In this document: one piece after another, positions 2,401-63,923 of the stretch
Layout: each line of letters opens with the position of its first letter
How positions within the stretch are numbered: the stretch's first letter is position 1
Assembly: GCA_024679065.1 (NCBI GenBank)
Contig: JAGIQG010000016.1
Location: 13,330,001-13,394,000 of the forward strand
Direction of reading: 5' to 3'
Source of the DNA: Sphyrna mokarran
Taxonomy: Eukaryota
Length of the DNA stretch: 64,000 nt
Translations under genes and position numbers: made by a program
The notes under the pieces: model-generated
The model's input: only the letters and a program-made list of their open reading frames with translations
The model's database searches: none
Told to the model about the DNA's origin: nothing

Positions 2401-2469
2401 CATTGTTTGCCTTATTCACAATACTTCATATCTATAAGGACGTTGTTCTTGGTTTCCCTGTCTATCCCT

Positions 2470-4378: not shown

Positions 4379-4414
4379 AGCTTTCCACGTGCAAAACTGC
4401 ATTGAAGAAGCTCG
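4379..4414 (+). CDS. 36-nt microexon, (E)LSTCKTALKKL
   Basis: ttttattgatttcag|AGCTTTCC...AAGCTCG|gtgaga. Confidence 0.88.
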
Positions 4415-7400
4415 GTGAGAAACTAGAGGTTTTTACAAAGAAAAATGAAACAGCCAAATAGTGACCAAGCATCACACCTGGGCAAAAAACAAAATAAGTT
4501 GTGTGACATTCTACTGACCATCCTTTTTTTTCCGAAGGGACCTTGTTTTGTGTTTGCATTCAATTATACTCAATTAACTATTGCAAAGTATAAAATATGC
4601 ATTTAGGGCAATATCAGCCATTCATCTCCTGCATCATCCATTTAATCGCAAGAGCATAACATTGAATCTCGTGACGCATCAATGAATTTGCCAGTGACAA
4701 CCTCAATGCCCTCCATTCAATTGTCTAAAATTGCATTTGTCAGCAATTGCATCTGTTTTGTGGACTGATATTCTGATCGCGAAATTGAGGAGATAAATAA
4801 CAACAGCATTTTTTGTTTTCGTCTTACAGAAGAAAAGCTGCAAGTGACGTCAAAAGGTGTTACGTTTTGCAATGCAACTGCGACATATCAAAAGTGTCTC
4901 TATTAGAATGGTTTTCATTCAACTGAGCCCGCAGGTTCGACTGCATTCACGGTATTATTAATTTTGTCTTAAAGCTGACGTCATTTACATGTTGGCAACT
5001 AACGAATGAATGACATTCAATTTTAATCATGATTCAAAAACTGATGTAAACATTTGTGAATATGCAGCTGACGGGCAATGAAACGGTACTTTTAGCTTTC
5101 CATATTTATAAAATTATGAACAGTTCGCTTCAATTGGATTGTCAAAATGCATTATGAGTTGCTGCAAAATGACGATCTTGGAAAGACACATCTCTTTTTT
5201 GCAAAAAAAGTTGCTTTTTCAATGATAATAAAATGATATTTGCTGATTTTGTGCTTCCTTAAAGTGAGCATTGTTATCCATTAATTTATAATCAGTAAGC
5301 TTACTAGGCAGATATTGTAAACATTTGATCACTTGTCTATGAAATGATTTCCAAATCATAAAAGCGGAGATATAATGAAGGAAATGGTTATCATATCAGG
5401 AGGAGCAACTACGTATTTGAAGTCTTAATCTCTTTATTGATCAGCATACCTTCTCTGATGCATTAACAAACACAATTTCCCGAAACATCATCAATATAAC
5501 GGGGATTGCTCGCAGCATGTGCACATGCGAGAATCTGTATTTGGTAGGTTGGCAATAATTGATATGGACTGTTTTCTTCTTATAGAAACAGATGATGTTC
5601 CCGGCACGACTGGCGATTCAGGTTTGCAGGAATAGTATGATGCTCGGTTTGAACGTTTTATTTTATTTTGCAGCTAATAAGACATCGTGGAGTAGAATAA
5701 TAATGAGACATTATAAACCACTGTCCGTTCAATGAAAATTAGTGGCTTTAGGATTTTGTCAAATGGCTGAAAAAGAATACGAAGGCAGTTAATTTGTTAA
5801 TTAGTATTCTGTTAAAAAATTAATTCGACCTTACCTGGTTAAATGCAGAGGCCATAATTGGGACCTGTTTGTGGCTGTTATGTCAATTGGATATTTCACT
5901 TTTACTAACGGATACATATGCAAGCTAAAAGCTGATTTTAACAGATCTGAGAACATTGTGGGTAGTAATTGATCACGGAACGTGCATCTCCGCAGTCTTC
6001 CCTTCAACAATTATAAACTCATTGATACATATATCTCAGCTAAATATAGTGTCTGTACTTCAGGTGTTTTGGAAATGTATGTATGAAAGTCAAATGGCTT
6101 CAGTGACACAACAACTTAAACCGCGACATTTCGGAGAAATGTACAGGAAGAATCATATCGATTTTAGATAATGTGAATGTAATTCACGAACATCAGTAGA
6201 AAAGCGCATTCTTATTGTAGTTATACAAAGCAATTCCTTGATCATTTTATTAATTCAGTGCTTCTTTCCCTAAATGGAATCAGTTGTACAATTTAAAAAT
6301 AATAATGCGGGGTAGGCGGCTGTACAGTGTTTTTTTTTCAGTTGACAATCGAAAGGCAGAGGATAATGCAGTGTGGGCATGTATTCGAAGCAAAGACAGG
6401 TGCTGAAAAATGATCCATATAATTTGGAATGATTTGAAATTATGAAATCAAAGTAATTATAAAATTGTTTTAAAAGCGGATCTGTTTCATGAATGCGCTT
6501 CAGGCCAAATACTAGTTCTTTACCCTAAGTTCGTTATACATTACCTTAAACCGACAGCAAGGTTATTGACTTTTCACTTGCTCACTAAAATTAGTCGTTG
6601 CCATTTTTTCAAGAGAAAAGATGAGTGGGCAATAAATACGAACGCACGCAATGAAAGCCTAAATGTTCTCGATGACAAATGGTATCCTATGTGCTCAAAT
6701 CCTGAAGACAATAATTTCCGAGAAAATAGTTTATACATTCTGGTTTCGGAAAATAATCGTCGCACACAATTATGCCGCTGCGTTAATCTGCGGATACAGT
6801 TGCCTGATCGGCAAGGAATGAATTGATTGCATTCATTTCTTGGGAGGGGATACTTTGTACCCTTTACCGTTGAGACAAATATGGCTGTAGCAGATCAGAG
6901 CGTACACCGTGTTGAGGACTTTTTTTTTCAATAGTTTGCCTTTTAACATGGATGCACATTTTCAGCTCCATCTGTAAACCAAGACGTCTGGGCCCTTTGC
7001 AAAGCTTACACTGTCCTGGCTCCTCAATTGTGCATTAGGTGAGAGTTCCATTTCCGCTTTGCAAGATTTCCATTCTTTACCGGGATATGAGTCATTGGTT
7101 CCGACTACGTTCGTTGAACAACCAGATTTCTGTTGAGATGGGTGTCATGCTGTTCAAATTTAGATCGACTTTTAAAGACCTACGCATTGTGTGGGTTGGC
7201 GAGAGCCTGCCACCCAGCCGATTCAGAATGTCTGATTGTCTTCACGTTGTCACTCACGTTGACGATTATTTACCGCTAGTCATTATGGTTTCCTTGGTCA
7301 GCGAATCGGTCCTCTGATTAATTCAATACTTTTTTTATTAAGTTATTGTCTACAGCGATATTGACTTGGCCGCTGGGTTACGAATCGATACTACTGCTGA

Positions 7401-10400
7401 CCACGACTCCACCAGCCTCCCTGTAGAAACGATTTTTTGATGACATAAATTATGACGTTTTGATTTATTTTGTTCTGATGTCCCTTTTTAGTCCGAGGAA
7501 ATTCTAACCCTTTGATATTTCAGTCAATTGCCAAAATTGCATTTGATAGTCAAGTGACTTGAGCCAACTTCTTGAAAAAAAACATGGTAATGCAAATCCC
7601 AATGTCTTGTGCAAATTGTGGATGAAAGCACAATGCTACCAAGACTGTTACCTCAATAATCTGGGCATGCTAATAATGCAAACAGTTTCCTTTTTATTTA
7701 ACAGCGATGAAATCGTTATATGTACATGCTTCAACTCTCAGTTGAATGTAAAGCGTTTTTTTTTAGGAGAACCATACTTGTGTTCATTGAAATATCTTTC
7801 ACACTCTTTTACAGAATTGAAACTGAAATCAAAGGAGGCAGGTATGCTGTTGTGGATTGTTAATATACATAGTAAAATTAAGATAAAACTATTTTAATCC
7901 ACTTATAGCCCACAAAATGGTACCTATATATCTAGAGTCATAGAGCCATAGATGTTTACAGCATGGAAACAGGTCCTTCGTCCGAACTCGTCTGTACTTT
8001 TCTTTTAGAGAAGCTCCTACACTTAACTCAATTACACGAATTTGGCCCATACCCCTCGATACGCATTGCAACCATGCAACTACCTATTTTTCTTAAGACA
8101 GAATTGCACCTGTCTCTATGACAATATCTGGCAACTTGTTCCAGACACTCACCACTCCATCTGTGAAAAAAAATGTCACTCTGGATGTTTTTATACCTGT
8201 CATCTCTCACCCTAAACTTATGCCCTCTAGTTTTAGACTCCCCTACATTTGGAAAAATAATTTGATTGTCTAGCTGTTCTGTATCCCTCATTATTCCATA
8301 TACCTCTTTGAGAGCACCCCACAGCCTCCTACATTTCAGAGAAAAATGTCCAAGTCTATCAGGCTATCCTTATATCTCAATCCATCAAGTCACAGTAGCA
8401 TCCCTACTTTTCTGCACTTTTTGTAGTTTAATAATATCTATTCTATCATAGGGGGACCAAAACTGCACATAGTATTGCAAGTGTGGCCTCACCGATGTCT
8501 AGTATAACTTCAACAAGACATTGAACTTTTGAACTCAATGTTCTGACCAATGAAACCAAATATGCCGAATGTCATCTTCACCACTTTGTTCACTTTGGCT
8601 CAACTTTCAAGAAACTATGAACATGGACCCATACATCTCTTTGCTTTGTAACTCTCCCCAGCGCTCGACCATGAATTGAGTAAGTCCTGCCCTGTTCTGC
8701 GTGTAAGCGAAAGACGGCTGCAGTAGCGATTGAACATATTTCCAGTCTTTATATGGACCGTAGCGTGAACTTTATTTTTGTAAGATTGTTAAGTTATGAC
8801 AGTGGTTTATCTATCAGATTGTTTTTTTTTTTTTGGTGAGCAAACTGACAGATAAATATATTGCGCGTTGCTATGGCGCATTTGGGTATTATTCATACCG
8901 GATTACGGCAGACCAAATTGTTTCCCGAATTTGTGGGGACATTTCCAAAACTTCGTTTTGAATGAGGAAAGGTGGGTCCCACACTCTTTTACAAACGGAG
9001 CATGCTATTTTTTTCTTAATTATAGCCGAGAATCAACTTCATTTTCTCCGAGTCAGTATTATTTTACCCACAATTGCACTCTAGACAACATTAAATGCAA
9101 TAATTTACTTTTCACTCAATCAGTAGCAATTGTGAAATACAAGCGCGGCCCATTTGTTTAGACATTGTCAACTATATTTTGCGTGTAATTCTAGATGTTT
9201 TTTCGCAGTATCGATTGTGAGGAAATGCGGAATCCAGATCCTATATTAAACAGGTCACGACAACCTTCCATAATTTATAATTTATGATTAACTTGGTTGT
9301 CTCTGAGCCAGTGGACACCATCGTTTCACCCTCAGTTGCACACTTGGCAAAACTAAATGTGATTTTGTTTTCACTCATTCAGCCTCAGTTGCAAGAGTAC
9401 ACGTGCGGACCAATTGTTTAATTATTTTTAACTCTGTTTTGTGTGTAACGTTAAATTTTTGCTTTTAGTATTTTACCTATCGTAGCTACTGGCTCTAAAT
9501 CGTCCTTGGATAACCACATTACAGCAAAACCGATATTGTTCTTCAGGTTGGCTAATACCACCTGTTCCCAAGTAAAACAGATACACAAATAAGGATAGAA
9601 AAGTTGTCCATCCATGTTGCAATGAACAAGAGTTTTTTTTCTCCCCACTCCCCCCAACGGATAACTTACCAAACGTAAAGGTGAATTAAGTGATCTCGGT
9701 AAGGGATTCCGATCTACATAGTAAAATAACCGGCAGAATTTTCCGCTGAATATATTTTACGTTGAACTGCTTCCGTATTCGGATGTGGCGAAGCAAACAA
9801 TTCATGTTTAATTTATTCCCTGTCTGCGATTGTGCAACGGTTATCCGGTACCGGTTTGTTGTGGAAATTCTCGGCGTTTACAACTGCATGTGCAAAATGG
9901 CAAGGACATCATACGTGGCTAGTTTTTGAAATTAATTTACTTGACATGGGCGTCACAGGCAAGACGAGTATTCATTACCTGGATAATCCACATTAGCCCA
10001 ATAACACTGACTACGATTTATGCTGTAATATAGAGCAAAATACTCCCAATTAAATAATTATGATTAATTTTCGCAAAACAATAATGAGGAAAGGGACAAA
10101 GTAAAATTGGTATGATGTTGCACTTTTAAGTTGGACAATATGTGATCGGCTATGAGCTCGCTGTCCGTCACTTTTGACGGCATAATTTGGACCCGCCGAT
10201 AAAGATTTTAAAAAGTGTTTTTTTTTCGGCTTTGAACTGCGACATTGAACAGGAGAATGAACTGCACAAATGGGATTTCTCCTTCCCCTTTTGCGATGCG
10301 CTATTGCTATATGGAATGTTGACGTGTCGGCATTGTTTGTTATTTACGTCGTCGTCTGTTTATTTCCTATTTCTCCAATTTGGGAAAGTTTAACTGTGTC

Positions 10401-13400
10401 TCCAGGATGGAAAAATTATTTTCGTTCTGAAAACTGGAATTGCATCATAAATTAAAATTGCGTGTTCAGGCACGTTGAAGTCTCTTCTGAGTATCAGTTC
10501 TCATCTGGTAATTGAAAAGACTCTCAAATAAGCTAATGATGTTTTGGAATGATTACTTAGCCCCCTAACGTACATGTTTGCACTTTAACGGAAGGAAAAG
10601 TTAAATCACAAAACGAGGGTAATTGTTATTATTTATTCGCTGAAAAAAATAAGCAAAACTTCTAATGACTTGAAGGGAAAATCATTATATGCGATATTAG
10701 AGGGAGAAGGGTTGCAGAAGCAATTGCCATTTTCTTTTGTTTTTCGTTTTTGTGGTGGGATGACGGGAGCTTGCCTATTTTAAGTCTTAAGTGCAGTAAA
10801 ATACCCTGTACTTCAGGTTGACATTCTTGCGCACTAAGTAATATGTGCATGGCTCCACTGGGAAATTTTTGACGCAGGTAGTCTACAATGGCTAAATTGG
10901 CGATTTTGTCCACCCTTATTCAGATGGTGATGTGTTGACCTTGGAACGAACTTTCCTGAAAAAAAAGGATAATGTTGGATGGCTTTATATGCCAGTGTTC
11001 TGATTCCTTACTGCTGCGAATTTAATGAAGTTTTTGGTTGCCATAATAAACTGTTTGTCCTTATACATTTTCCTGAACATGTTCTAAGGCCATGATAGTG
11101 AGGAGCATCAAGCCATTTCTGTTTCAATTTAATGCCTCAGCTTTCCTAAGTCATGACTAAAAATTTGCTTAAACCAGGCTTTAATCTGTTAATTTATCTT
11201 GAGTTAAAAAAAAAGATAAGGAAATAAAGACAATTCAAACTTCCGGGCCTACTACCAAATTTTGATCTTACCCTCTTGCTTACTCATCGCTGCAATTTGC
11301 ATTTTTTAAAATATATATTTGAGCTGCTAACACTCAAGTGATTCTAAAGCTTATCACTGCTTGAATCAATGTTTTGAAGCTCGTAAGAAGTAGACGCAAA
11401 TGCATCTTAACATGACCAGCTTTCAAATGCTTCGCATTTACTTGGATACATGTTGTAGTGATAAGTAAATGTAACTGATGTTTCATTGACGATGTGTTCA
11501 ATTAGAATTCTGATCTATTTTCCACCAATGGTAGCCCTCACTTAAGTTCTCCCGGTGATTCATTCAGCTGCAAATAGTCTAGTCACTGTAATTGCCGGGT
11601 GAAATAAACTATTTCAGAATTTGTCATGCTTCTGAACTGACACATTGTTTTGTTTCCTGAAATTCTCCAAATTTACTTATCTCATTTCTGCATTGTTCTA
11701 TGTGGAGGAATGTACATCTTACTATGCCCTGAATAATTGCCCAGTCGAAGCGCTTCGAAAGACTTTAAATACATCAACATATCAATACACCTCAGGCTGT
11801 TTTGAATTTAATTGCTCAAAACATGCCGTCCATCATTCTAGAAAATATCACATGCAAGAAAGCTTCGGAAGATTTCGGTGAGACAATATACTCGCTCATT
11901 GAACAAAACCATTATGTACGGACTTAATGTGGTAGAGAATGTAAGCGATATCGAACTAATCAAACCTTGACAACGTAAAATTTGTTTCGCAATAATCGCA
12001 CAATTCGAAATATTTCCACGCTCATGCGAGAAAACATACTCTGCATTTTGTCTGTCTTGAACATTATCACTGTTATCACTGTTTATCACTTAATAATGAT
12101 CGTATTGCAGAATACAAGTTGAATGACAAGCACAAAGATATTATGATTTATAATTGATAAAATTTTAACGTATTAACATAAGTGTTAGCACAAAAATTGC
12201 CCGATGAAAGATACCAATTCTAATATAGAACATAGAACATTCTAATATGAATGCCATTTCGCTCTTGTTTGTTCTTTGTATCGACTTTATATGTAGTCGA
12301 TATGGATTTTTTTTTTGAAAATCAGAGGGCGGCATTCGTGTATCGAGTCAAAATAAATGTTGCCTCTGGCGTCATATGCCAAATCTTTGTGTTTGCTTTT
12401 ATTCTGCAGTTTTTAGTGTCACGGAGAACCGTGCGCAGAATTCATTCGATGATAATCAGATGCGTTTTGGCACTATTATGCTTCAGACATTGAATGACGT
12501 ACTGAATGAAAAAAAAGTTGTATGATTTATTTCCATTACATGTTTTCAGCACAATTTAATGACGAATATTGTTCTGCGGTTCCTCATTAAACAGCAATAG
12601 GGTTGGTTCGTTGTAAATTTGAGTCTCTTGACTTTATGTAGTAACACATAAAGTACCATTCAGAACTGGCCAACACCAAGAAAGCCATTGAAGAGGAAGG
12701 CCAGATTAGCGCTGGCGTTGCGGTGTGGGAAATTATTATTTGCATATATTGAAAACTTCGTGGTGTATTCGAAAATGGGCTTATGAGGCAAGATTCTTGA
12801 TTAGTTTTCTAACAGATTCGTGCGCTGAAAATAGCGAAATTGAAATCAATTTGTCCAAAAATATCTTGGGCAATAGTATTTTGAGTTGGAACACAATTTG
12901 ATTAATCCAACAGAGTTACTTGGCTGGCATTGCATTGCATTGGTTAAATTATCCGAATCGATTTGGCAAATAATATATGGGAAAACAAAATGTTGGTCTT
13001 AACGTATATGAGGAATGTTAGCGTGGCTAAGAGTTCTGCAGTGAATGGGTTCTCGTTTCTTTCTGCATTATTGACTGTTTTTTAAAGGAAACTATCTGAT
13101 GTTAATTATTGCTTTCCAATGTTAATTCGCATGCTGAATTCCACGAAATGCAAAATTATGAATAGAAGTACCCAGAAAAGTCACATTTTACGAAGAAAGG
13201 ACAGATCGCACATGAATATAATTCTAGAAGTGCATGACATCCTTCTTAAAGTCGTTCCAACGAATATTTCGACTGCAACCAGCTTCAGTTGAGAGAATGG
13301 ATGCGATAGAATTTAGTGTTTTTTTTAGTTTCATACAAGTCAAATAGTTAACGTGTTCCTCACAATTAATTCGTCCAAACACGATGTGATCGCACATTCG

Positions 13401-16400
13401 CATGCGATACTCAGTAACGAGCAATAATAACATTAAAATAAATACACTACTGTTCCAAGAAACTCTTAAGTAGAAACATATAAAAAATGAAGCAGGTGTG
13501 AGTCATTTGACATTTCCAGCATCTCCGCCATTCATTGGAATCCCAGCTGAACATCAAATTGAATATTTTGACTCACCCTTCCCTTTGTTCTTTTAGCCGC
13601 AAGAGTGCTATCTAATTTAAACTGGAAATCATATAATATTTCGGCGACACCAACTTTCTATGGCAGTGAGCTCCACACATTCACCACTACCTGTTGAAGA
13701 AACGTCCCCTCACCATTGTCCAAATAGCTTTACTTTTATTCTCTGAATATGACAACGATTCTGGCCTCCCTAGCATCGCGATCAATCCTCTCTGAATTTA
13801 CCCGTTCTAACCCGGTTAGAATTCTATAAATTTCGATGAAAGCCCCTCCCACTCTTGTAAAAGTAAGTGAACACCATCATAACTTGATTAGTCTCTACTC
13901 AATATAGAAACATATAAACTTGAAAAACGTTCAATAATAATTGCCGTCAATCTGCACGATGTGCAATTAATGTCAATGCAAGAAAATAGCCGATAGATTC
14001 GGCACCCGGAATCTGAAGTTTACCTGAATTAGCAAATGAACTGCAGATTACCTTACTTTTCAATATCTTGCGTTCAAATTGGAGCAGGGTGAAAAAATCT
14101 GAATTTTGAATTCTCTGTGCACTATTCCTTTTTATTAGCAGATTTTTTTCAAGCTTCTATGTTTCCAAGTGTTAGCAGAGATTAAGCAAATTAATCTGTT
14201 GTTAATTTGCTTTTACAAGAACGGCAGGGGCTCTCGTCGAAACTTACAAAATTCTAACCGTGTGAGGCAAATATGAATTCGCAAAATATGAAAGCGACAC
14301 TGCCGGAGCCCAGAAGTGGATGTCATAGCCAGGGGATAAAAGAAAACCTACTTGAAGTTTCATTGTTATATCCAAATGTGAGCGTGAAGTGAGGAAATAT
14401 TATAAGTGCATAACATCAATGTGAAATTTCAATTTCTTACTACAAAATGTGGAAGTTTTAAATAATGATCTGGTCATTAGCGGAATAAATTTAGAGAAAA
14501 AAAACTTGTCAATTTTTAGATTTAAATTGAAATGTTGGTGGGGCCATACCGGAACCATCGATACTGAATTAATTTGATTTATACACAACAGCAGTACATC
14601 ATGCCAACTTTTTTTGTGAAAGTAGAATTGCTGCCATGCCAATCTCAGCGTCGAATTGGAAGTGGAACTTCCGATGTCCTTTGCCAAGAAGATGAAAGCA
14701 TATTTCCCATTATGCATTTCAACATTACTGACTCAAATTGTGCACAGTACATACGCCATATTTCCGTTTACCTTGTCCAAAATCCAGGTGCTATCATCGA
14801 AACATCTTGCTACATTTAACAATTCAGTAACCTCGAGGATGCATCACGAAGAACAGGAAATTGCTTTTTTTTCGAGCAGTGGCGTTCGAGATATCTGACA
14901 GAATAATGAAACGCAATACACGGTCAATTATTAAAATCTAGAATGACAAAAGATAGCATGTCATCTGGTTTAAAAATAAGTCTCAGGTTGGCTGTGAGAT
15001 ATAACATATCTATTTGTAGACTAAATTACCCTTACAGATTGAAATTCAGGCAAGTTATATAAGGATCCGTCGAATTAGATTTGAACTTGCGCCCAAGACG
15101 TAAGTCGAGGACAATAAACTTATCGCAGAGATTATTCTTTTTTCCTAGGTTCAACATGAAACGTACAGGCTGAATAGCTGCTACTACTTTGGTGCAGAAG
15201 AGGGACAATTTTCATCCGGCCAAGTCATGCTGACTCACTCTGCTGAATTCTTCTCTGTCTAATTGACACTTCATCCCAACTCCGAATTTATTCCAATAAT
15301 AAATAAAGTTATATTCTCGAAGGAAAATGAGTAGTCATATGTCCAGGAGCATAATTTAATTCCAATAATAGTGAATCACTATGAAGCAACTCATTAAATT
15401 AAGTTGTTACCGATAATTGAATATCGAAATTTACCAATCTGTATTGAGAAAAGAGAAGTTTGGTTGCAAGGGTGCAGGCTAGTGAAATAATCATTTTTTT
15501 CTAAAAATATCACACACAGGAACACAAATCTCTGAGTTGAAAGAAAAAAAAACACATGAAAACATGAATACAATGTTTGTTGTGTACATAACTTATTGGA
15601 AAATAACGTGTAATGAACATGCTAATCGAGTATATTGCAAGTAAAATATGCTTGGAATGCACTGGAAAAGCTGCAACGAAGAAAGAGAATGAAGATTTTG
15701 GAACTGAGGCATTTTAAACATCACTAAGCTGGTTGTGCTTTGTACATTTACTTCTGACGGAGTGTAGGAAACATGAACGACTCTTACGAGGAATTATCAG
15801 TTTAGAACAAATTAACCTGCCTGTGTAATATAAATAACCATCCTTCCATTATAGGAAAACAACTGGAGTCAAAAGAAGACGGTAACTCTTTTAACAAATT
15901 TCGATTTATCTTACACTATCCGCCCCTCAAGCGCCATGACAGAGAATCTGTTAATTATACTAATGAAAAATGTGGCAGGTGGTGTAAACTGGAAAGTAAA
16001 GAACACAGTTCTGAATTTCTTTGGCAGGCGGACAATATCCGTTCAATCTTAAAATAGTATATTTTGACTTCAGCACACTTCAATCGTATTGGAATGTGTT
16101 TGAGATTTATTAATTTTTCGTAACACACAAAAAAACAGAAAATAGTTACTTTGGGAAAGTTGTTTGTAACATTATGGTCTGCGAAATTCCGGCCTGGATT
16201 TCGTGTCACGCTTCAGCGTGTGGGTGGGGTGCAGTGGGAAGAATAATGCGGTACTTACGTTAGTTCGCGCAGCGCAGCCATTCTCTTTCTGCTCAAAATT
16301 AACATATGCTGTGGGAACACCCTGCACAAGGACATCAGAATTGAAACTCTGAATGTCTCATATTAAATGGAAAATGTGGCTTTGAATTCGCCTTTACTGC

Positions 16401-52400: not shown

Positions 52401-55400
52401 GATTTCTTGCCACGTATATATCTGAGAAAGAAGTGCAGGAAAATATCAAAGTTGGTTCTAGGCACTTAGAGATCTCGAAAACTGAACATGAATCAGTTTT
52501 TAAAAATAAAATCATTGTGTGACTGCTATGGCGGTGAATTTTGGCGGCTACTGATAGGCCTGTAGAAATGTTACCAAATCCTTCTAATTTGTAATTTTTC
52601 AATCTAATTTTTTGGTTCGCAATACTTCATCGTTGTCTGGAATAACGTGAGGAGCAACGGACAACAAAATGGCAATTTGTCCTGCCTTTATTTAAAGAAT
52701 CGAGAGCATAATATTAAAAAGAAGATTGAAAACAGGAAAAGTCGACAAGGACAATAATGAATAACAAATCATAAGCATACGGACTACTTAACAACACAAC
52801 TCCCCTAAAATTACCTCTCCTTCCCAACTTAACTACGTTGTTTGGAAACACAGACATTGTTTTCCAAAAAAAATCATAACGATTGTTACCTCTGCAATTC
52901 AAATTCAGTTCATTGCCACCACGATTTAGGTGGCCATGTCTGCAATGCTATCAGTGTGAGGTCAGCAAAGGCATACATCTGCGCGTTGTGGAGGAGAATA
53001 CCGGCAATATGCATTCCCTCTTACTTTCAAGGGAGTTTTGGGCGATCTGGCAGTTGAACGTCAACTACTCTCTCGGGCTTCGGATTTGTATAGTTTCCTC
53101 AATATGGCAATGCTTGCAATGATAATACTTTATCTCCGTGACATTTCAATCTCTGGATTCAGTTGCCAAAATATCTCAAATTGCCTGAATTTAGAAAATC
53201 GCATGCACATAAGTAATTAACTCAAAGTATTCGAGGGAAGTTTTTTTCCTATAAATAGTGCAATTTACATGTAATTTGGCTCGATATCTGCTATCATTGT
53301 TACGAGTAAATCCAAACCCTATCTTCACTTGGTTTGGCAGGTACGCGTGCCATAATGAACATATTTAACCGCTTCTGTGCCATTTGTGTCTGATCATAAC
53401 TTCGTACTGTTGCTGTTTTTGATGGACAGTTCCCTATCAATACGCGATTTAAACTTTTTTTTTCTTGTTTTCAAATTTACACATTCAGCTCTGGAGAAAT
53501 GCAAAGCTATAGTGCAGAAATTGAGTGAAAAGAACTATTTTCCCATTCGTTATTTTTTCAAAGCTATTTGGCACCAGATACAAATGTGCTGTAATTTATT
53601 TTCAGCAAACAGGATGATTCGTTCTAAAACATCTAAAAAAAGTATTTGTGATTGTTTGATCTAATACTACCAGTTACCAAATTTGGACTTACGGCTCATC
53701 TTAGTTTTTTGTTGAATTCGTAATGTATAGTCTGCCATGAGCAACAAAGCACAATGTTAACGCAAATGCATTAAGGTGGCAGAAGGGTATAGTTTAGAAC
53801 AGTGCGCCCCCACCTCACCCCCCACACCCTACATAGCTATACGCAATAAGCCCAATGCCAAATTCTTGTCCTCAGTGGGAAGCTTTGGAGGAATATCATG
53901 ACAAATATACCGTGCATTAGTCATTGAATATTGGACTCCTAAACATTATGCAACCTAAATATCTTAGTTCTATTTCCAATAGTGCAGCGTAGTATTAGAG
54001 AAAAAAAAACGATTATTCCTTCTGTTTTTGTTTGTCTGTCAAGCTATTACTTAAAACATAAACTGAATTCTAATCTCACGAATTCCGAATGCTCCTTTTT
54101 TTTTGCATTTCATTCATATCTCTGAAAAAAAAAACGAAGGAACCGTTCTCTGTATAATGCTTCCTTTTTTTTTGACCAATTCCAGTGAACCCATACTAAT
54201 ATTTTGTTGTCTATTTAATATCCCCAAAGACGCTGCTGTAACGTTTTGAACTGCGTGATTTTTATTTCCTGCCTGCTCTTTAATAGTCTTTTTTTTATGT
54301 CTTTCATTTTCTTACACTTTGAGCACATCAATACTGCTTGTTATTCAATGGGAATGTACTCGATAATCGCTTCGATTCGTTTATCATCTCTATTGCCTGA
54401 TCCATTAACCCATATTGAACTCATACACAGGCCGTATCCTACTTTAGACATCCTCACGAATTTAACACAAAAAAAATAGGATTTGAAGTAATTAAAAGAC
54501 CAGTGATTAAGGCAGTATTCCCCATTTCTGCCCAAATCTGGATTGTATCTTGATTTGTAGTTACGTCTCCTGTTTCTAATGTCTAAGATTAGGGGAAATA
54601 TAATACACACGCCTGACCAATTCATTCATTTCATGATTCTGAAGGTTTCGTTGAGCTCAACCCGGATTCTTGGAAACATTTCAGACTAAAGAAATGTATC
54701 CAATTATTTTCATGATGCGGCACTAAATTGCGAGGGACAACATTCCCAATCTTAACTATTTCGTATTGCCATTAATTGTGAATTTTATTCAAGTTTCTGA
54801 TCCAAATATGAAAGATATTTTCTTTCATGGGCAACTCTCACTGCACTTCCACAGTAATATCCATCTTGATCCACGTAACCAAAATTGTCCCCCCTCCACC
54901 CCCCGCCCCCGGCGTGCTTATTACATTGTAATTATACTCGAAGGAAAATTCCATTACAATGTGCTGGCAAACACCTTAATGAGGAATACCGCATCATGAG
55001 CCTTCCTCACTTCCTCAGTTCGATATAACTGCTGTCCGGTGTGTCTTAGTGAACAGCATATATTGAAAACTTTAGCTTCTAACTTCTCCCAATGAAATCC
55101 GTTCACCCTTCCCAAGCCACAGCGTGATTTTTTCTCTATTATATCCTTCTGTTTTGAGCATATGGAAATAGGGCAGAATTTAACTAATTTATGGCATGTC
55201 TTACCAATCTGCGATTGGCTGAAAAGGGGGAACGCCATCGACTAATGTTACAACACAGTTTCTCCAGACTTATCTTTAAAATATGAATCATTGGTATAAT
55301 AATTGTTCTCATGAAAAGTAAGATTTGTTACTGTAACGACATCTTCCTGATACGAAAATCAACGTGTCTTTGTTGCCAAAATGTTTAAGACAGGGGAACG

Positions 55401-58400
55401 AATCCTGTGAAGGCCTTAGAAATGATGACGTGATGCATTGATAAATTTTATAAAGATTTAAATTGTTGATAGCGTTAATACGCTTGTCTAATGTGAATTT
55501 CGAATTCAGTGCATCGACATGACACATCGGACATATCTACAGCCTCCCTGTTCATTGATGATTTTTTTTTTCCGACCTTTGTTCTTTGGAAGAAGTGACT
55601 TTAATTTTAAAAAGTAGTGAGTCAGCGGTCGAAACGATTAGAACGTAATCATTCATTTGATGACTATTTGCAAAGTATCACAAGGCACATACCCAAAATA
55701 ATCTAAATTAGGCAATACTATGTTGTCGTAAGCAATGCATATAAAAGTTAAGTGCAAAACAGTAAACAGTGTTTAGAATGACAGCAAGTATTCTCTAATT
55801 ATACACCCGATTAATAAAACGTCTAAATGATGGAATTCAGAACGGACTAGAACGGTAGAAAAGCCGCAACATACTGCTGCAAATTCTGTAACTCAAGAAT
55901 GCACTTAGTTCAATACATCTTTTAATTTTCGAAAAGACGACACATTTAATGTATCTTCCTGTAGTGATAACCCTTTTTATTCTTTCCAAATTTTATCAAA
56001 CAATAAGTCATTTCAATCTTTTGTTTATTGAAAACAAAATGTTGTACAATACCGTGCATTCTGTGAAGGATTTAAGCTTGCCCAGTCAAGAGTTACCTTA
56101 TAAATTTATCCAATAGTATGCCAACTCTGCAAAACAATCTCAGAAGCTTTATATGTTTTGGAATGTTGACGTCCTTCATTCTTTACAGCTGAAACAGAGT
56201 AATTTACACTTAGGTCTGTTAGCTCGAGTAAAGCTAATCAAGAACACTCAAAATTCGGAAGGAGAATTAGGTAATGCCCGTCCTGTGGTCCAGTCTTATA
56301 CTGTGAGTCATTCATTCAACCGTCAGCATTGAAATTCAGTTAAATCTGCAAGCTAGTGTTGGCAATGGCCGCATTGAATCAATCACTGCTTAGAACATAG
56401 TTGTACGCTTGGTGCGTATGTTTTCCTGGTTCGTTAGCGCACTTCAGCAAAGGAAATCTGCACTCTTGAGCAACACTATTTCAAAATATTAACTCACATG
56501 TGCCCACTCAGAGATCTCATAATGCCACGCCGCTAAAGGCAATTACGTATCGATGTCATTTACCTATCACCAAAAAAAGGGAAATTGCAAAAAGAAACAA
56601 CTAAATGTGTTGTTTTCGGGAGAAATCAGATGAAAAGCTTTTTTTTTCCCTGAGATCCGTTGTAAAAACTAAGTTAAATTCTGAAAGCAAGGTAGAAATG
56701 AACAACCATCTCAGTTGGATCGAGAATACAATTTACGTGCGCATGTCGCAAACAATAAAACAGTACTAAGTGTGGAACGGCAACAAGATATTGGAGCCAA
56801 GCAGGATATAAGCAAATATGGGAGTGGTATCATTGCGCTACTCCATGATTGTTTTGCACTTAGTCAGTAAAGAGGTAGAGTTGACAGATTCATATTGAAT
56901 GCGACCTATGTATATAACCTTTGATTACAACCTTCAGAAGGGAAAGCCGGAGCAAGATATGAGGGGTGATTGTTTGTGGATGTTGGCCGACATGAAGGAT
57001 AAATCAATAGCTACAAAGCAATATCGATGCTGGGGATGTTTTCAGTTATCGAAAGGCATTTGACCAAAATCTGGTTAATTAAGCAAACTTATTGCCCCTT
57101 AGGTTAAAAAAAAACTACATGGTAAGCCAAGTTATTTCTGAGACGCAGGTAATAATAGATGAGTGAAAAATTTGGTGTTGAGCATTTGGAATTGCAAATC
57201 CATTTTCTAGAGCACCACATAACAACGAGGTTACCCAAGTTGAAGACCATTGAGTAAAATTCTTGTAGGATCATGGAAGACGGTCAGGTTAAGCAACATC
57301 GAATAGAACATTCGTAACGGCGTGTTTAACAGCACACAACATCACCGTAAATTGAGTGTCTGCACTTTATCTTCGTAAGGGTATACCAGGCCCCGTTCGA
57401 GATTTTCGGTTGAAATAATACATCGAAATTCATCGAATAGTGTGATGAATAAAGAGTCGACTTCAATTTGGCAAAAAAATAGACTACGAAATGAGGCTAG
57501 GTGAGCGGAGCGAGGGTATGCATTTTGTCGTGTTGGTGCACTTTATTACTGAACATCGAACGCAGTTCTGCAAATTTAGAAACACAGTGGAATAATTGAA
57601 AGTTGTGAAGCTATTTCTGGTTGGTGCAGCGCTGTGAAACTTCGATCAGAAACTTAAACTGAAGGATGGCTCTTGTATAAAATATGGATGTTATGGATCT
57701 TTTTTTTTACGCGAATAATTCCTTCATTTTTAGAGGAGAATTTGAAAGGGAAAGAGAAAGGTAATAGTGTTAAAGTTGTTTTTGGACAATTCATTTTAAG
57801 TTCAACAGTAATATCACCACCCGGATCTTCACCCCCTCATTCACAATAGATACGCAATTGCACTTGGAGGCACAAAACGGACAGTGGTGTGCACATGTGA
57901 AAAATGTTGATACAGTTGATTGATGTGCACATGCATAACTCTATAATTTATCAATGCATGCGTCAAAAAGCCATTTACTTGTGAACCAGCGTGAGGAAAA
58001 TAATATTTCCACTTTTATTACCTGTGTTCCAAGATTCAGAATTTTTTTAAAACTGACCAACGCCATGAGAATCAATTCCTGTCCTTTGTAGGTTAAATAT
58101 TTTATAATTTGGTGCCATGTGTCTCGATGTTTTGTCTCCGTGCCTCAAAACGATAAGGAACAGAGATCAATTCTTTCTCTGGGTGGTTATCTGTGTGGAA
58201 AGTGCACATTCTGTCCATATATGCATTGATTTAATTTGTGTGCTCCGGTTTCTCGATGCATCAAGCAATTCTAACCATGTTATTATTATAAATAATATTG
58301 CGTTGTTGTTTTTGTAATTATTATTGTTAGCAACATTTTTATTAGAGCTACAACAATAAATAACTTTGTGAATAGCAGCGGCAGGAATTCAACTATTATT

Positions 58401-61400: not shown

Positions 61401-63923
61401 GGGATTCTTCTATATCATATATGATGATTCCTTTGCATTCATCGTACGCTGCAATTTGTGTTCGAATCATTCGATATACATGGGATCATCTCAGAGACTA
61501 TCGCTGTTGCTGTGCTCACACATGGATTTGGGCCTGTGTCTGCGGGAGTTTGCGCGTTCTCCCCGTGGTTGCGTGGGTTTCCTCCGGGTGTTCCGGTTTC
61601 CTCCCACATCCCAAAAATGTACTCTTAGGCTGATTAGCTAACAAATTATCCCTATATTGGTCCCTATATGGGAATCTTCAACAATAGGCATAGCCTAAAG
61701 TCAAGGATATGTCATTAAGACGTTAGGACGGCGGCGTGGGCTCGTTGGGCCGAAGGGCCTGTTTCCCGTGCTGTGTTGCTCTTTGTTCTTTGTTCTTGTT
61801 ATCATTTGATTGGCCGTTCTTCAACGTTTCAATTGAGCAATGCATTTAAATTGTAATGATTTTTTTTGCGAAAACCACTGACCCAACACACATTTCTTTA
61901 CATTATGTTCCATTGAGTAGCCAATACAGTGTCCCAATGTTTAGCACTGAAGCCTCAAAGCGCAAGTGACTTGGGTTTGATATTCACCTTGGATCACTGC
62001 ATATGCAGAGTTTGCACGTTCTCCCCGTGTCTCCATGTGTGTCTTCTAAAATCTCAGGTTTCCTCCTACAAACCGAAATGAAATGTTGCTTGAATGCATT
62101 GGTCATGCTATATTATCCCTCACTGTATCTGAATAGACGTCCAAGTGAGACGACTAGAGGATCTTCAAATTAACTTAATTGCAGTGTTAACGTTAGCCGA
62201 CTTGAGACTAACATAATAATAGATTTCTTTATCTTAAAATATGGTGGAATCTGCATTTTAATACATTCATGACGTCATCTGAGACGTGATCTTGTAGCTC
62301 CTTCCAAAAATATAGCAAATTATCTGATGTAATTTTAAACATTTCACCATAAGGACGAAACTTTCTATGCTTTATCGACCCAGGATAAAGGAATGGCAAC
62401 ATCATTCTAAGTCAATGTAATGCTTTCTTTCCGGATAAAACTGGGAAGATATTCTTCTCATGTAATTTTTCGCTTTATGCTTGAAAGTATTTGAGCTGAT
62501 AATTTTGGAAACAAAATGGCAAATTACACGCCAGTTTGGAAGATCTTTCTTCATGGATAACTTCCATGCCCGGGCCTGTTGCTGCCATTTGAAGAAAACA
62601 TACAAGAGAAGATAGCTTCAAAGCAATCCTGAAAATCTGATAAATGTGTTGGGCTATTTGATGGGATCAGCTGCAGAGTTTCCAAATTCAGAAATGCTAA
62701 TACACGCGCTCTTGTCGTAGCTTCAGTGTAACTGCCACTTCCGCTTTTTGCTAAAAGTTAGCTACATTTTGTTGAAGTTTAGTCTCAAAGATTGGGAAAG
62801 TGAAGAAAGCATAGTGTCATTGGATTGCTATAATATAGACGGAATCCTTTCACCATTGCAGCAAAACATGCCAGTTCTGCGAAATGTATGTTTTTGTACC
62901 TCAAGACTGTTTTGGCTGTTATTGTATATTTTGTATACTCCACTTTATTATCAATTTAGTTTTGTAGGTCACCAGATAAACAGTTACCTCTAACTTCACA
63001 GACAACATTTTAGAGATCTAACATACTAACTTGAAATACCTTTTGGCTCATGTTGCCATTCATTTTCCTGTTGCCGGTAATCTTAAATTAATGCCTTGTG
63101 GTCTCCACCCCTCCAGCCATGGAAAAGTATGTCACAATGGCCGCTGCCTACACGGCTGATAATTATGAAAATAATTCCGAAATTTCTGTTTAAACAGAAA
63201 AGTAGAGAAACCACATCATTCAAAGCTATCACTCAAAATTAATCACCCGTTCGTGCTATTCGTAAATGGTCGGTTAATGTGCATCACACTTTAAGCTGCA
63301 GTGATACGATTGATGTTGGATTATGTGTCTAATAAGAAAATCTTGCTCTGTAGAATTTATTGGAGAACATATTTTCTTGTTCGAATTGCGTGGCTTGTGT
63401 CGGCATAAGCCACCGACAAAAGTACATTCGGCACATCATCCTCATACCCTCTCAACCCAAGCCACACGTCACCACATCGTTTAATGGAATTAAGTCGATT
63501 GACTGACTTCACCACATGCTAGACAATATTTGAAAGTGTACGTTGACAGCACGCTATTACTAAAAACCAAACGGTTTTATATTTAATACTTACGATCGAT
63601 ATCAATCTACAGTATGAATGCTTATCAATGAGAACCCAATGTTGTGCAATCGAGACAATATGGCATGTTCATAAATTAATGCACGTCGTTCCAATTAATG
63701 AAACCTTCAAAGAAAATAATTGTTCACTGCACGTTTGTCTTTCATTCGGATCCACGTGCCGCCATCAAACCCCCCCCCCCCCCCCCCTTACTACCTTCAC
63801 TGCCACCCCCTTAGGGCTGCAGGATTTTCCCCACCGATGACGCCGAGTTTTAAGTAACCATTTGCAGTTATTTATTTTTAATTTCAGATCTTACTGACAC
63901 CAAAGAAAAGTTGGAAGAAGCAG
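4379..63923 (+). CDS. Internal part of a multi-exon gene: array of ~21 alternating 36-nt/27-nt phase-1 microexons encoding a 21-aa-repeat coiled coil; start and stop outside the window
   Basis: Repeated pyrimidine-tract+AG / 36 or 27 nt / GT units in alternation; spliced frame is open and shows heptad hydrophobic periodicity (positions 2,5,9,12,16 of each 21-mer). Confidence 0.88.
4830..4856 (+). CDS. 27-nt microexon, EEKLQVTSK
   Basis: ttttgttttcgtcttacag|AAGAAAAG...TCAAAAG|gtgtta. Confidence 0.82.
5586..5621 (+). CDS. 36-nt microexon, ETDDVPGTTGDS (atypical, non-helical)
   Basis: gttttcttcttatag|AAACAG...GATTCAG|gtttgc; exact length and slot in the alternation; ends TCAG|gtt like the 17700 exon; composition is divergent. 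Confidence 0.55.
7815..7841 (+). CDS. 27-nt microexon, ELKLKSKEA
   Basis: actcttttacag|AATTGAAA...GGAGGCAG|gtatgc. Confidence 0.88.
7935..8700 (-). mobile_element. CR1 LINE 3' fragment
   Basis: (agagtcat/agagccat) tail; minus ORF ...ESKTRGHKFRVR... Confidence 0.85.
11842..11877 (+). CDS. 36-nt microexon, ENITCKKASEDF
   Basis: catcattctag|AAAATATC...GATTTCG|gtgaga; TCK motif and donor shared with the 4379 exon. Confidence 0.85.
12111..12137 (+). pseudogene. 27-nt microexon-like unit EYKLNDKHK with non-canonical (AT) donor; probable dead exon
   Basis: gtattgcag|AATACAAG...CACAAAG|atatta; right size, slot and xxKL motif, but GT replaced by AT. Confidence 0.55.
12664..12699 (+). CDS. 36-nt microexon, ELANTKKAIEEE, GC donor
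   Basis: ccattcag|AACTGGCC...GAGGAAG|gccaga; resembles the 63888 exon, whose donor is gtcaga. Confidence 0.68.
13468..13900 (-). mobile_element. Highly degenerate CR1 3' fragment
   Basis: tagaaacat tail, cacacattcaccactacctgttgaagaaac and aattctataaatttcgatg...ccccctc segments resemble other CR1 copies. Confidence 0.55.
15855..15881 (+). CDS. 27-nt microexon, GKQLESKED
   Basis: tccttccattatag|GAAAACAA...GAAGACG|gtaact. Confidence 0.87.
17700..17735 (+). CDS. 36-nt microexon, ELNECEKDLEAS
   Basis: cttaatcataacag|AACTCAAC...GCTTCAG|gttggt. Confidence 0.87.
19105..19415 (-). mobile_element. HE1-like tRNA-derived SINE, degenerate
   Basis: ggccttt...gggaggaag...gaggaaacccacag...ctccgcacag pattern shared with 26800-27120. 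Confidence 0.65.
19937..19963 (+). CDS. 27-nt microexon, EDNLKLKEN
   Basis: ttttttttctatgcag|AAGACAAT...GAGAATG|gtattc. Confidence 0.88.
21370..21700 (+). mobile_element. tRNA-derived SINE, degenerate
   Basis: A-box-like tggcggaatgg and B-box-like gagctcgaatcc; related fragment at 60790-60850. Confidence 0.5.
21960..22775 (+). mobile_element. Degenerate CR1 3' fragment
   Basis: ctgaaagtggcaacacagttagataagg..., FTRKVMNICNAL..., 3' end gaaggtccgaag...ttctttgt. Confidence 0.8.
24283..24318 (+). CDS. 36-nt microexon, DLTSCTRSLKEL
   Basis: tctatctcccag|ACCTGACT...GAATTAG|gtaaga. Confidence 0.9.
24738..24800. repeat. (TAT)n/(TAC)n microsatellite
   Basis: tattattatt...tactactactactattactacgactactactac. 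Confidence 0.9.
24800..25795 (+). mobile_element. RTE-clade LINE fragment; 5' portion (24800-~25005) inverted
   Basis: Minus: WKQGSIP...CDNHRGISLLSITGKTLARVMLNRL; plus: FTYFGSTL..., GRRSRGGQKKRF..., ARIGLSSHLR; followed by (TAT)n repeats. Confidence 0.85.
26800..27120 (-). mobile_element. HE1-like SINE
   Basis: aaagaacaaaacagcacgggaaacaggcccttc tail; gggaggaaaccggag...gaaaacccacgc...ggggagaatg body. Confidence 0.8.
27330..27840 (-). mobile_element. CR1 3' fragment
   Basis: ORF 27505-27828 MLQLYKTLIRPHLEYCV...LERRRLRGDLIEVYKIM. Confidence 0.92.
28330..28735 (-). mobile_element. Degenerate CR1 RT fragment
   Basis: VDKGEQVDIIYLDFQ; gaggtcccagcaccgatccc...ggcactccac (reverse of SGVPxGSVLGP). 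Confidence 0.8.
29143..29169 (+). CDS. 27-nt microexon, GEELKIKEH
   Basis: tttttttttcag|GAGAGGAG...GAGCATG|gtaaca. Confidence 0.9.
29508..29682. repeat. Long inverted repeat (~84-bp arms) derived from Penelope terminal sequence
   Basis: taagaggtctgacaacatcaattttaaatccaacc... pairs with ...ggttggatttaaaattggtgttgtcaggcctctta. Confidence 0.92.
30070..30240 (+). mobile_element. SINE fragment (HE1-like body)
   Basis: tctccccgtgtctgcgtgc...ttccttccacagtcaaaaagac...gttaggtggattg. Confidence 0.7.
30497..30532 (+). CDS. 36-nt microexon, ELIAFKTSMKVL
   Basis: ttttctatattacag|AGCTCATT...GTTTTAG|gtacgt. Confidence 0.87.
30690..31030 (+). mobile_element. CR1 3' end
   Basis: gtggatagtcagaggctttttt...ggtaggtacctggaacg...gaagggcctg. 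Confidence 0.8.
31269..31295 (+). CDS. 27-nt microexon, EEMWEAKDE
   Basis: ggtcttttacag|AGGAAATG...GATGAAC|gtgagt. Confidence 0.87.
32406..32441 (+). CDS. 36-nt microexon, QLKTCDELERKL
   Basis: ccaaactgcag|AACTCAAA...AAATTAG|gtaagg. Confidence 0.88.
35445..35637 (-). mobile_element. tRNA-derived SINE 5' part
   Basis: Reverse complement starts ggggcagcatggtgggagaatggttagcattgct...cccggtgttgattccc. Confidence 0.75.
37080..38010. mobile_element. GC-rich putative non-autonomous DNA transposon fragment (Harbinger-like end), includes (CT)n and (CA)n tracts
   Basis: Abrupt GC/CpG-rich block ending gaaatgataaactcggtccc, whose reverse complement resembles the start of the block at 42871; internal palindrome cgcgcccg-aaaa-cgggcgcg. 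Confidence 0.4.
37589..37627. repeat. (CA)n microsatellite
   Basis: cacacacacacacacatacacacacacatacacacac. Confidence 0.95.
41174..41203 (+). CDS. Length-variant short microexon: 30 nt (VKDEMNKENE) or 24 nt from 41180 (DEMNKENE)
   Basis: Strong donor GAAG|gtaagc; two in-frame acceptors (gaatag|, ttaaag|); occupies the 27-nt slot between two 36-nt exons. Confidence 0.68.
42078..42113 (+). CDS. 36-nt microexon, DITDANKMLKEA
   Basis: tttttcttcatttcag|ATATTACC...GAAGCAG|gtctga; 28/36 identical to the 63888 exon. Confidence 0.88.
42871..43725. mobile_element. C-rich putative non-autonomous DNA transposon fragment (Harbinger-like end)
   Basis: Starts gggcccgcttttaccatatc (TIR-like), followed by a strongly C-skewed interior. 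Confidence 0.4.
44343..44575 (-). mobile_element. CR1 3' end (older copy); probable continuation at ~45500-45740
   Basis: gaacatagaacatagaacagtacagcac tail. Confidence 0.75.
44576..45412 (-). mobile_element. Young 5'-truncated CR1 (HER1-like) with intact 246-aa ORF2 C-terminus
   Basis: ORF 44669-45409 WAERWQMEFNVEKCEVMHF...LVRPHLEYCVQFWSPH...; (AGAACAT)n tail. Confidence 0.95.
46035..46900 (-). mobile_element. Penelope-like remnant with inverted terminal repeats
   Basis: Minus peptide KLEEQHLIFLLGILQP..NIEF; 46045-46135 is an imperfect reverse complement of 46790-46885. Confidence 0.75.
47230..47256 (+). CDS. 27-nt microexon, EEKLKSTEE
   Basis: tttctttattttgagcag|AAGAAAAG...AGAAGAAG|gtatac. 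Confidence 0.87.
48150..48445 (-). mobile_element. Degenerate HE1-like SINE
   Basis: tagaatcat tail; cccgaggccagaatcaa...gtgagacagcagc 5' end. Confidence 0.55.
48465..49500 (+). mobile_element. Rex1/Babar-like LINE 3' fragment
   Basis: RT-like segment (ctggattctg...gccccag...cttgtacacctatgactgtgtggcc); LYFLRRLNKFG...CSAQDRKKLQ; ends aataaatcaaatcaa. Confidence 0.75.
50560..51700 (-). mobile_element. Rex1/Babar-like LINE, deleted fragments
   Basis: CSPDLQYWTLKCRPYYL...VSIPP endonuclease-like peptide; degenerate 3' part at 50560-50970. Confidence 0.7.
51885..52395 (+). mobile_element. Penelope-like non-coding terminal region with hammerhead-like motif
   Basis: ccgacga-tgtttcc...ggtgac-gaaacgtct...caagctcggcgaac at 52323-52385. 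Confidence 0.55.
53489..53524 (+). CDS. 36-nt microexon, ALEKCKAIVQKL
   Basis: tttacacattcag|CTCTGGAG...AAATTGA|gtgaaa; conserved CK motif. Confidence 0.8.
54340..54700 (-). mobile_element. Very old CR1-like 3' fragment
   Basis: ttcatgattctgaaggtttcgttgagctcaaccc-type segment; weak. Confidence 0.3.
57734..57760 (+). CDS. 27-nt microexon, (K)ENLKGKEK
   Basis: ccttcatttttag|AGGAGAAT...GAGAAAG|gtaata. Confidence 0.88.
60486..60509 (+). CDS. Possible 24-nt microexon, EESNKSSK
   Basis: ttttcctgatctgttgaag|AGGAGTCC...AGTAAAG|gtaaat; in frame and parallels the 24-nt option at 41180, but breaks the alternation. Confidence 0.4.
61530..61800 (+). mobile_element. HE1-like SINE
   Basis: gagtttgcgcgttctccccgtgg...ccggtttcctcccacatcccaaa; tail gggccgaagggcctgtttccc...(ttctttg)n, reverse complement of 2856-2970. 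Confidence 0.85.
61925..62225 (+). mobile_element. tRNA-derived SINE (second family)
   Basis: ttagcactg..gcctca...gagtttgcacgttctccccgtgtct...ggtttcctcc. Confidence 0.7.
62975..63240 (-). mobile_element. Very degenerate CR1 3' fragment
   Basis: atcttaaattaatgccttgtggtctccacccctccagccatggaaa resembles the reverse of the CR1 FP...TRGH region. Confidence 0.4.
63888..63923 (+). CDS. 36-nt microexon, DLTDTKEKLEEA
   Basis: tttatttttaatttcag|ATCTTACT...GAAGCAG|gtcaga. Confidence 0.9.

Follow-up and report, generated by a model that had tools for sequence, protein, structure and literature searches.

A predicted gene of at least 750 kb in the shark Sphyrna mokarran probably encodes a micro-exon coiled-coil stalk with a C-terminal B30.2 domain

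The window, a stretch of 64,000 nucleotides of Sphyrna mokarran DNA (contig C668:13330001-13394000, + strand, within a 2.77-Gb genome), is probably the middle part of one very large and intact gene, in which a coiled-coil stalk encoded by micro-exons is followed by a C-terminal B30.2 domain, and which has grown by blocks and is subject to skipping of single exons. The predicted gene spans at least 750 kb, with the window at its middle; positions outside 1-64000 extend the window numbering. The stalk would be built from two ancient micro-exon types, of 36 and 27 nt and both of phase 1-1, whose combination corresponds to three heptads.

A first scan of the window revealed that AG..GT segments of 36 and 27 nt have related translations. 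In total, 19 segments bounded by AG..GT/GC and adding up to 612 nt were found on the + strand between 4379 and 63923: 11 of 36 nt (type A) and 8 of 27 nt (type B). As Table 1 shows, these segments are predicted exons, all of phase 1-1. The initial annotation had stated that all exon lengths are multiples of 3 and of phase 1-1, such that any skip is frame-safe, and all 19 exons of the window fit this description. Joined in order, the 19 exons contained no stop in the phase-1 frame, compared with 19 and 7 stops in the other frames. The order was ABABAABABABABAABABA, with alternation at 16 of the 18 junctions. The Pro/Gly/Thr-rich exon is probably a hinge, and the exon with the GC donor is a weak candidate for constitutive use. 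By eye, exon-like 3' ends with good donors, lacking an in-frame 27/36-nt acceptor, were seen at 41173-41202 (between two A exons) and at 56240-56272, and are possibly further variant or dead exon copies. The introns of the window also carried decayed interspersed repeats (1-3600, 25000-25800, 27350-27830, 44340-45700, 48500-49450, 30100 and 61550-62080), which we take to be LINE/SINE elements. Some of these repeats recurred within the window and some contained reverse-transcriptase-like frames; a Pfam search with five repeat frames from the window introns gave no match over the cut-off.

Table 1. Predicted exons, broken copies, terminal exon and paralogous genes (window numbering unless C668 is given)
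Feature	Position	Strand	Remarks
Exon A (Cys type)	4379..4414	+	36 nt, phase 1-1; donor TCG/gtgaga; array also runs upstream of window
Exon B	4830..4856	+	27 nt, phase 1-1; donor AAG/gtgtta
Exon, Pro/Gly/Thr-rich, non-heptad	5586..5621	+	36 nt, phase 1-1; donor CAG/gtttgc; found by splice sites alone, missed by A profile
Exon B	7815..7841	+	27 nt
Dead B copy	10592..10618	+	acceptor AG lost; relaxed scan
Exon A	11842..11877	+	36 nt
Dead B copy	12111..12137	+	donor GT lost, leaving an A-A junction; relaxed scan
Exon A	12664..12699	+	36 nt; donor AAG/gccaga, sole GC donor among 154
Exon B	15855..15881	+	27 nt
Exon A	17700..17735	+	36 nt
Exon B	19937..19963	+	27 nt
Exon A	24283..24318	+	36 nt; donor TAG/gtaaga
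Exon B	29143..29169	+	27 nt
Exon A	30497..30532	+	36 nt
Exon B	31269..31295	+	27 nt; donor AAC/gtgagt
Exon A	32406..32441	+	36 nt
Exon A	42078..42113	+	36 nt; donor CAG/gtctga; preceded by A, no B detected between
Exon B	47230..47256	+	27 nt
Exon A	53489..53524	+	36 nt; donor TGA/gtgaaa, 4/9 consensus matches, weakest in window
Exon B	57734..57760	+	27 nt
Exon A	63888..63923	+	36 nt; array runs on downstream toward terminal B30.2/SPRY exon outside window
Terminal B30.2 (SPRY) exon	C668:13715942-13716462 (+385942 to +386462)	+	pyrimidine-rich phase-1 acceptor; closed by stop
Paralog gene	C668 8.56-8.82 Mb	-	B30.2 at 8.56; span by pattern matches
Paralog gene	C668 11.18-11.34 Mb	+	B30.2 at 11.34; span by pattern matches
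Paralog gene	C668 11.56-11.88 Mb	+	B30.2 at 11.88; span by pattern matches
Paralog gene	C668 11.93-12.46 Mb	-	B30.2 at 11.93; span by pattern matches
Paralog gene	C668 13.77-14.32 Mb	+	B30.2 at 14.32; span by pattern matches

The exon catalogue was built with iterated profiles run on 264, 464, 814 and 834 kb. At the working threshold, the full exon profile found 154 intact exons on the + strand and none on the reverse strand. With intron-side splice scores only (750 kb, lengths of 15-63 nt), 34 candidates of 27 nt and 47 candidates of 36 nt were obtained. Other lengths, whether or not divisible by three, averaged about 5 candidates, as did the reverse strand; the same exons had been used to train the splice profiles, and the contrast between lengths served as the control. 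Because of this length contrast and the absence of reverse-strand matches, the 27- and 36-nt segments are not due to chance.

The array extended from at least 363.7 kb before window base 1 to about +379 kb, and its 5' start lies beyond the region read. At least 154 intact micro-exons (81 A and 73 B) were present, encoding a rod of at least 1,629 aa with a coding share of 0.65%. At a coiled-coil rise of 0.15 nm per residue, the rod would be about 245 nm long. Length variants of the A and B exons were found at -217312 (30 nt), -177083 (24 nt), -142750 (30 nt), -62829 (33 nt) and +93158 (18 nt), in a scan of multiples of three only. A recent tandem duplication of 474 nt (97%) at -343476 to -342525 copied an A-exon acceptor together with the first bases of the exon. 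A retrocopy was also considered and rejected: a short A-to-B junction motif had one match in the genome, with no open frame around it, and this was a chance match.

A SPRY search identified a 184-codon frame at +385.9 kb (SPRY E 3.8e-17), 322 kb past the window. The PRY family search gave no match on C668 among the best 150 of 208 candidates scored, because the PRY half of the rod-B30.2 family is divergent. We infer that all exons are joined in one transcript, on the basis of their common strand and phase and the absence of any other B30.2 between them. The predicted B30.2 fold was confirmed in a model of the skate relative, for which the top fold matches were the B30.2 domains of TRIM7 and TRIM58. 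The available text of PMC8813856 assigns ligand binding in TRIM proteins to their B30.2 domain, and a binding function would be expected for the shark domain as well. The protein most likely oligomerises via its rod, which would present several B30.2 heads at a distance.

The translated exons showed a clear heptad pattern. Hydrophobic residues were found at A2, A5, A9 and A12 (0.74-0.86 of copies) and at B4 (0.90). In the A+B unit, the core positions 2-5-9-12-16 (spacing 3-4-3-4) form an unbroken a/d pattern over 21 residues, which bears out the earlier proposal that 12 plus 9 residues amount to three heptads; the sixth and last core position was Lys in 53 of 73 copies. A5 was Cys in 32 of 81 copies. 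The core Cys residues occurred only in the central part of the array (-235 to +175 kb); in a secreted protein, they could form cross-links between chains. There was no enrichment of N-glycosylation sequons in the rod (8 observed, 6.3 expected). Types A and B alternated at 117 of 153 junctions, compared with 76.8 +/- 6.1 and a maximum of 99 in 20,000 shuffles. Since alternation was far above the shuffles, register matters, and the result supports the view that selection maintains the A-B alternation.

The remaining 36 junctions joined exons of the same type (22 A-A and 14 B-B), and in-register runs had a median of about 33 aa. A looser threshold gave a similar same-type share (42/178), and undetected divergent exons may account for part of these junctions. 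The initial annotation had also predicted that single skips shift the register. This agrees with the available text of PMC4786415: an A-A join equals heptad+5, with five extra residues that have to be distributed across two heptads, whilst a B-B join equals heptad+2, a two-residue insertion that broke the helices in the trimers studied there. The rod would thus be a chain of in-register segments in which the register breaks probably act as hinges, and occasional Pro/Gly/Thr exons, such as the one at 5586, may also segment the stalk. In a single-chain model of the skate relative, two long helices were broken at residues 58-66, inside a Gly-rich stretch of 18 residues (pLDDT <50) between A and B units, which weakly suggests hinges.

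A relaxed scan with no splice-site requirement gave 156 matches, of which 136 kept both splice sites and frame and 20 were broken; under neutral decay to the level of the intron divergence, 42-69% of sites would have been lost. Among copies with intact sites, 154 had no stop and 1 had a stop, compared with 21-32% with stops predicted under neutral decay, a contrast that is inflated by the preference of the exon profile for copies without stops. For 13 pairs of duplicated exons, which are few and non-independent, dN/dS was 0.49 and dS was 0.34, close to the intron divergence, and exons were more conserved than their flanks in most of these pairs. The broken copies, the short annotation of several relatives (RefSeq models of 230-460 aa) and the retroelement-like fragments filling the introns would suit a decaying relic, in which many exons have fallen out of use and expression is confined to a short 3' part with the B30.2. 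However, the retention of sites and frame, the conservation of exons over flanks and a chimaera relative annotated at 1,697 aa all argue against decay, and we regard this explanation as highly improbable. Purifying selection maintains the frame and, mostly, the A-B alternation, but single exons are gained and lost.

Five low-copy duplicated blocks with 71-74% identity were found, each carrying 3-6 exons of both types. The co-similarity of A and B was r 0.25 for true partners and r 0.20 and 0.27 for partners shifted by one; as true partners were no more co-similar than shifted ones, the unit of growth was the block and not the pair. Block duplication under selection is the most likely source of the alternation, and the stalk would have grown through duplicated multi-exon blocks that hold both types.

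The gene was not alone in the genome. The five closest other genomic B30.2 matches were all located on C668, with 37-49% identity, and each was found downstream of B-type exons on the same strand. A pattern search for B-type exons gave 61 matches, 50 of them on C668, with 7 in the control; for the 14.32-Mb paralog, the B-type exons were seen in the exon profile scan. The paralogs spanned roughly 0.15-0.55 Mb, and the genes ending at 11.88 (+) and 11.93 (-) were arranged tail to tail. In the paralog directly downstream, the first A-like copies, at extended positions 433551 and 436676, were broken (one with a stop, one with no donor), and a 2-kb tandem duplication was present ahead of them at 417.5-421.7 kb; a search for the first exon of this paralog gave no identifiable candidate. 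On a second contig (C1548), A and B exons at two places and one family-type B30.2 were found among 98.13, 99.81, 101.07 and 101.42 Mb, within a large TRIM/butyrophilin/lectin cluster; on the minus strand, the exons seen follow that B30.2 instead of preceding it. This cluster is a possible place of origin.

Relatives were collected by a search of 1.84 billion representatives and by a profile search in which 7,997 candidates were scored and the best 120 listed. Among the matches listed, the named members of the rod-B30.2 family were all predicted proteins of cartilaginous fish (chimaera, skate, electric ray and catshark): Callorhinchus milii XP_042192744.1 ('nuclear-pore anchor-like', 1,697 aa), Leucoraja erinacea XP_055510696.1, Narcine bancroftii XP_069775384-90, and Scyliorhinus canicula XP_038672306-10 and XP_038668997.1. 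These are predicted models under generic names, with a B30.2 identity of 30-41%, and single-sequence searches with the shark B30.2 found no close ortholog. In a midpoint-rooted tree, 14 family B30.2 domains, picked by likeness to the query, formed one clade with a support of 100/100, separate from the 24 remaining rows (TRIM, butyrophilin and others); the clade excluded 7 BTN rows, TRIM39/69/A33 and three B30.2 exons of the same genome that adjoin BTN-type IgC exons. For 6 of 7 rod sequences of the relatives, the fit to the A/B profiles exceeded the shuffle maximum (141 vs 31 in the chimaera), and most annotated members shared the 12/9-residue units with the shark array. With a B30.2 inside this clade and a rod of 12/9-residue units, the shark gene is a member of an unnamed chondrichthyan family of 36/27-exon rod-B30.2 genes, of which no description was found in the open-licence full-text literature. 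Within the rod of the chimaera relative, a mucin-like, Pro/Thr/Ser-rich tandem repeat of 8 residues was seen at about 900-1015, and three consecutive, nearly identical units of 12 residues at 650-685, an apparent duplication of a single A.

Several features of the gene are shared with known proteins. As described in the available text of PMC5938342 and PMC8813856, chicken BG proteins contain a long coiled coil pieced together from individual small exons, with the first codon split between exons, a repeat number that varies between genes and a cysteine in the rod. According to the same text, BG genes encode an IgV domain, a transmembrane segment and about 27-38 exons of 21 nt with no B30.2, and their tail length is altered by alternative splicing, reportedly through intron read-through and not through the skipping of pairs. 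In contrast, the shark gene has at least 154 exons of 36/27 nt over 750 kb and a B30.2 end, with no Ig or transmembrane exon in the part read. A search for 21-nt exons gave 5 candidates compared with 8 on the reverse strand, and only 27 and 36 nt exceeded the background. Butyrophilins (BTN/BTNL) also have a heptad region followed by a terminal B30.2 exon, and the B30.2 of BTN3A1 was the best solved-structure sequence match to the family profile (E 8e-34). However, as far as the available text describes them, they carry IgV, IgC, a transmembrane segment and a short heptad region, unlike a rod of at least 1,629 aa, and their B30.2 is separate from the shark-family clade. TRIM proteins with B30.2 (TRIM39, TRIM69 and A33-like) resemble the family in having a coiled coil before PRY-SPRY, and the RefSeq names of the relatives (TRIM39, TRIM69, A33-like) reflect the B30.2 domain only; unlike TRIMs, six relatives had no RING or B-box, the rod was made from micro-exons and the B30.2 clade was separate. 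In guinea-pig enterophilins, a long heptad leucine zipper lies directly before the B30.2, with no RING or Ig; these proteins are mammalian and cytosolic and contain a few dozen heptads. By analogy, the shark gene may work like a BG tail joined to a B30.2 of the butyrophilin/TRIM type, recalling the enterophilins.

These similarities would also suit a membrane-anchored BG/butyrophilin-like receptor, in which IgV and transmembrane exons lie farther upstream and the array encodes a cytoplasmic tail ending in B30.2. The heptad micro-exons with split first codons and the terminal B30.2 exon follow the BG/butyrophilin layout, the B30.2 of BTN3A1 was the top solved-structure sequence match, and the 5' end of the gene lies beyond the region read. 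However, no credible Ig or transmembrane exon was found in 814 kb around the window, a region that does not reach the gene's own 5' end, and the V-set and BTN-IgC searches matched C668 only at 2-5 Mb (V-set: best 150 of 1,261 candidates). Pfam searches with six relatives gave SPRY/PRY as the only meaningful domains, with no Ig, transmembrane, RING or B-box domain, and the best 19-residue hydropathy was at most 1.59 across eight relative sequences; BG proteins, by comparison, are disulphide-linked dimers with a single IgV domain and a transmembrane segment. Likewise, 111 open frames, 102 of them from the 52 kb before the first intact exon of the downstream paralog, had no Pfam match at the curated cut-off. 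Together with the exon sizes of 36/27 instead of 21 and the exclusion from the clade of the three B30.2 exons beside BTN-type IgC exons, these results make such a receptor quite unlikely. A C-type lectin stalk (CD23-like) was rejected, as there was no lectin match on C668 and no credible motif in 814 kb.

The preferred reading, a B30.2 protein on a micro-exon stalk, would place the protein outside the cell if the signal-peptide-like starts of two relatives apply to the shark gene. A hydrophobic, signal-peptide-like N-terminus was present in 2 of 6 relatives (skate and chimaera) and absent from the other four, which may be incomplete models. Hunts for a signal-peptide exon in this genome, including the region before the downstream paralog, gave chance-level candidates only.

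The initial annotation had proposed that adjacent A+B pairs are skipped or duplicated together, giving a splice-tunable ruler. Under this proposal, regulated skipping of pairs would produce in-register rods in steps of 21 residues (about 3 nm). The arithmetic of the proposal was sound, as A+B makes exactly three heptads. Alternation was far above chance, and mixed pairs accounted for 115 of 151 adjacent two-exon skips, none of which added a register break. Donors with at most 5/9 consensus matches were present in 16 of 154 exons, and chicken BG tails vary in length by splicing, according to the available text of PMC5938342. Introns shorter than 700 nt were found at 18 of 59 A-to-B positions compared with 2 of 58 B-to-A positions; this inherited spacing is the sole feature that could favour joint recognition of A and B. 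However, most partners are separated by introns of about 1 kb or more (medians 1.6 and 2.5 kb), 36 of 153 junctions are already off register, and a step of 1% on a rod of at least 1,600 aa would make a poor ruler.

Isoform lengths in multiples of 63 nt, as expected for a ruler, were looked for in the RefSeq models of relatives. The internal isoform differences were 6 and 9 aa in the ray, 9 aa in the catshark and 9 aa in the chimaera, just before the B30.2; none was a multiple of 7, and 0 of 4 corresponded to a pair, the kind of pattern that the initial annotation had named as speaking against a ruler. This count covers predicted models of three short relatives, which are genes other than that of the window, and leaves out four N-terminal variants and differences between chimaera releases (mostly 9 and 12 aa). 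As judged by eye, the skip in the catshark dropped an extra 9-mer between B and A units and restored the register, which suggests that single skips may switch a hinge on or off. Dead exons were examined as 18 of the 20 broken copies (the low-scoring copies at -239 kb and -136.5 kb were dropped) plus one stop-bearing copy. They formed 16 runs, of which 13 were single exons and 3 were mixed pairs; loss of the single exons left a new same-type junction in 7 cases, an A-B junction in 5 and an A-A junction as before in 1. Neither these runs nor these isoforms support pairs as the unit of skipping.

Donor variety had been taken as a sign of variable inclusion, and the six donors quoted were indeed present (gtaaga at 24283, gtgagt at 31269, gtgtta at 4830, gtttgc at 5586, gtctga at 42078 and gccaga at 12664). 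However, donor type mostly went with exon class: +5 G was found in 72 of the 81 A exons, compared with 17 of the 73 B exons (Fisher p 2e-17), and donor strength, counted as consensus matches over 9 places, had a median of 7/9 in both classes. Members of duplicated pairs shared the +3 base and the presence or absence of G at +5 in 13/13 cases, but their overall +3 to +6 identity was only 37/52, like that of introns. Among A exons, donor likeness was weakly related to exon likeness (r 0.15, p 0.004); B exons showed no such relation (p 0.14). Exons without -1 G had +5 G in 12 of 14 cases, compared with 77 of 140 others. This fits the general trade-off between exonic and intronic donor consensus in the available text of PMC10599564, where the -1/+5 coupling itself was undetected in animals. 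Because 16 of 154 donors are weak, some skipping is likely, and it would affect exons singly, with no pair preference. The ruler would be striking if true; the present evidence points away from it, and we consider it very unlikely.

A bolder form of the preferred reading would combine these features in a so far undescribed family, specific to cartilaginous fish, of coiled-coil fibres that are secreted, partly disulphide-linked and at least 250 nm long, with extracellular B30.2 heads. Such fibres would be encoded by half-megabase-scale genes with at least 150 symmetric micro-exons, from which single or pair skips would give very many rods differing in length and hinge position, a register-break switch and not a ruler. 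As a whole, we regard this combination as unlikely.

A gene of at least 750 kb, with less than 1% coding sequence and at least 154 exons of 27/36 nt, would represent an extreme of exon-by-exon rod building. It would belong to a multi-gene family whose members are labelled TRIM- or myosin-like in annotation from one domain. The family would represent a third mode of mounting B30.2, neither that of TRIMs nor that of butyrophilins and possibly extracellular, which predates the split between chimaeras and sharks. The array would also be a natural system in which to ask if the gain, loss and skipping of exons are limited by coiled-coil register, and how long series of micro-exons are processed by the spliceosome.
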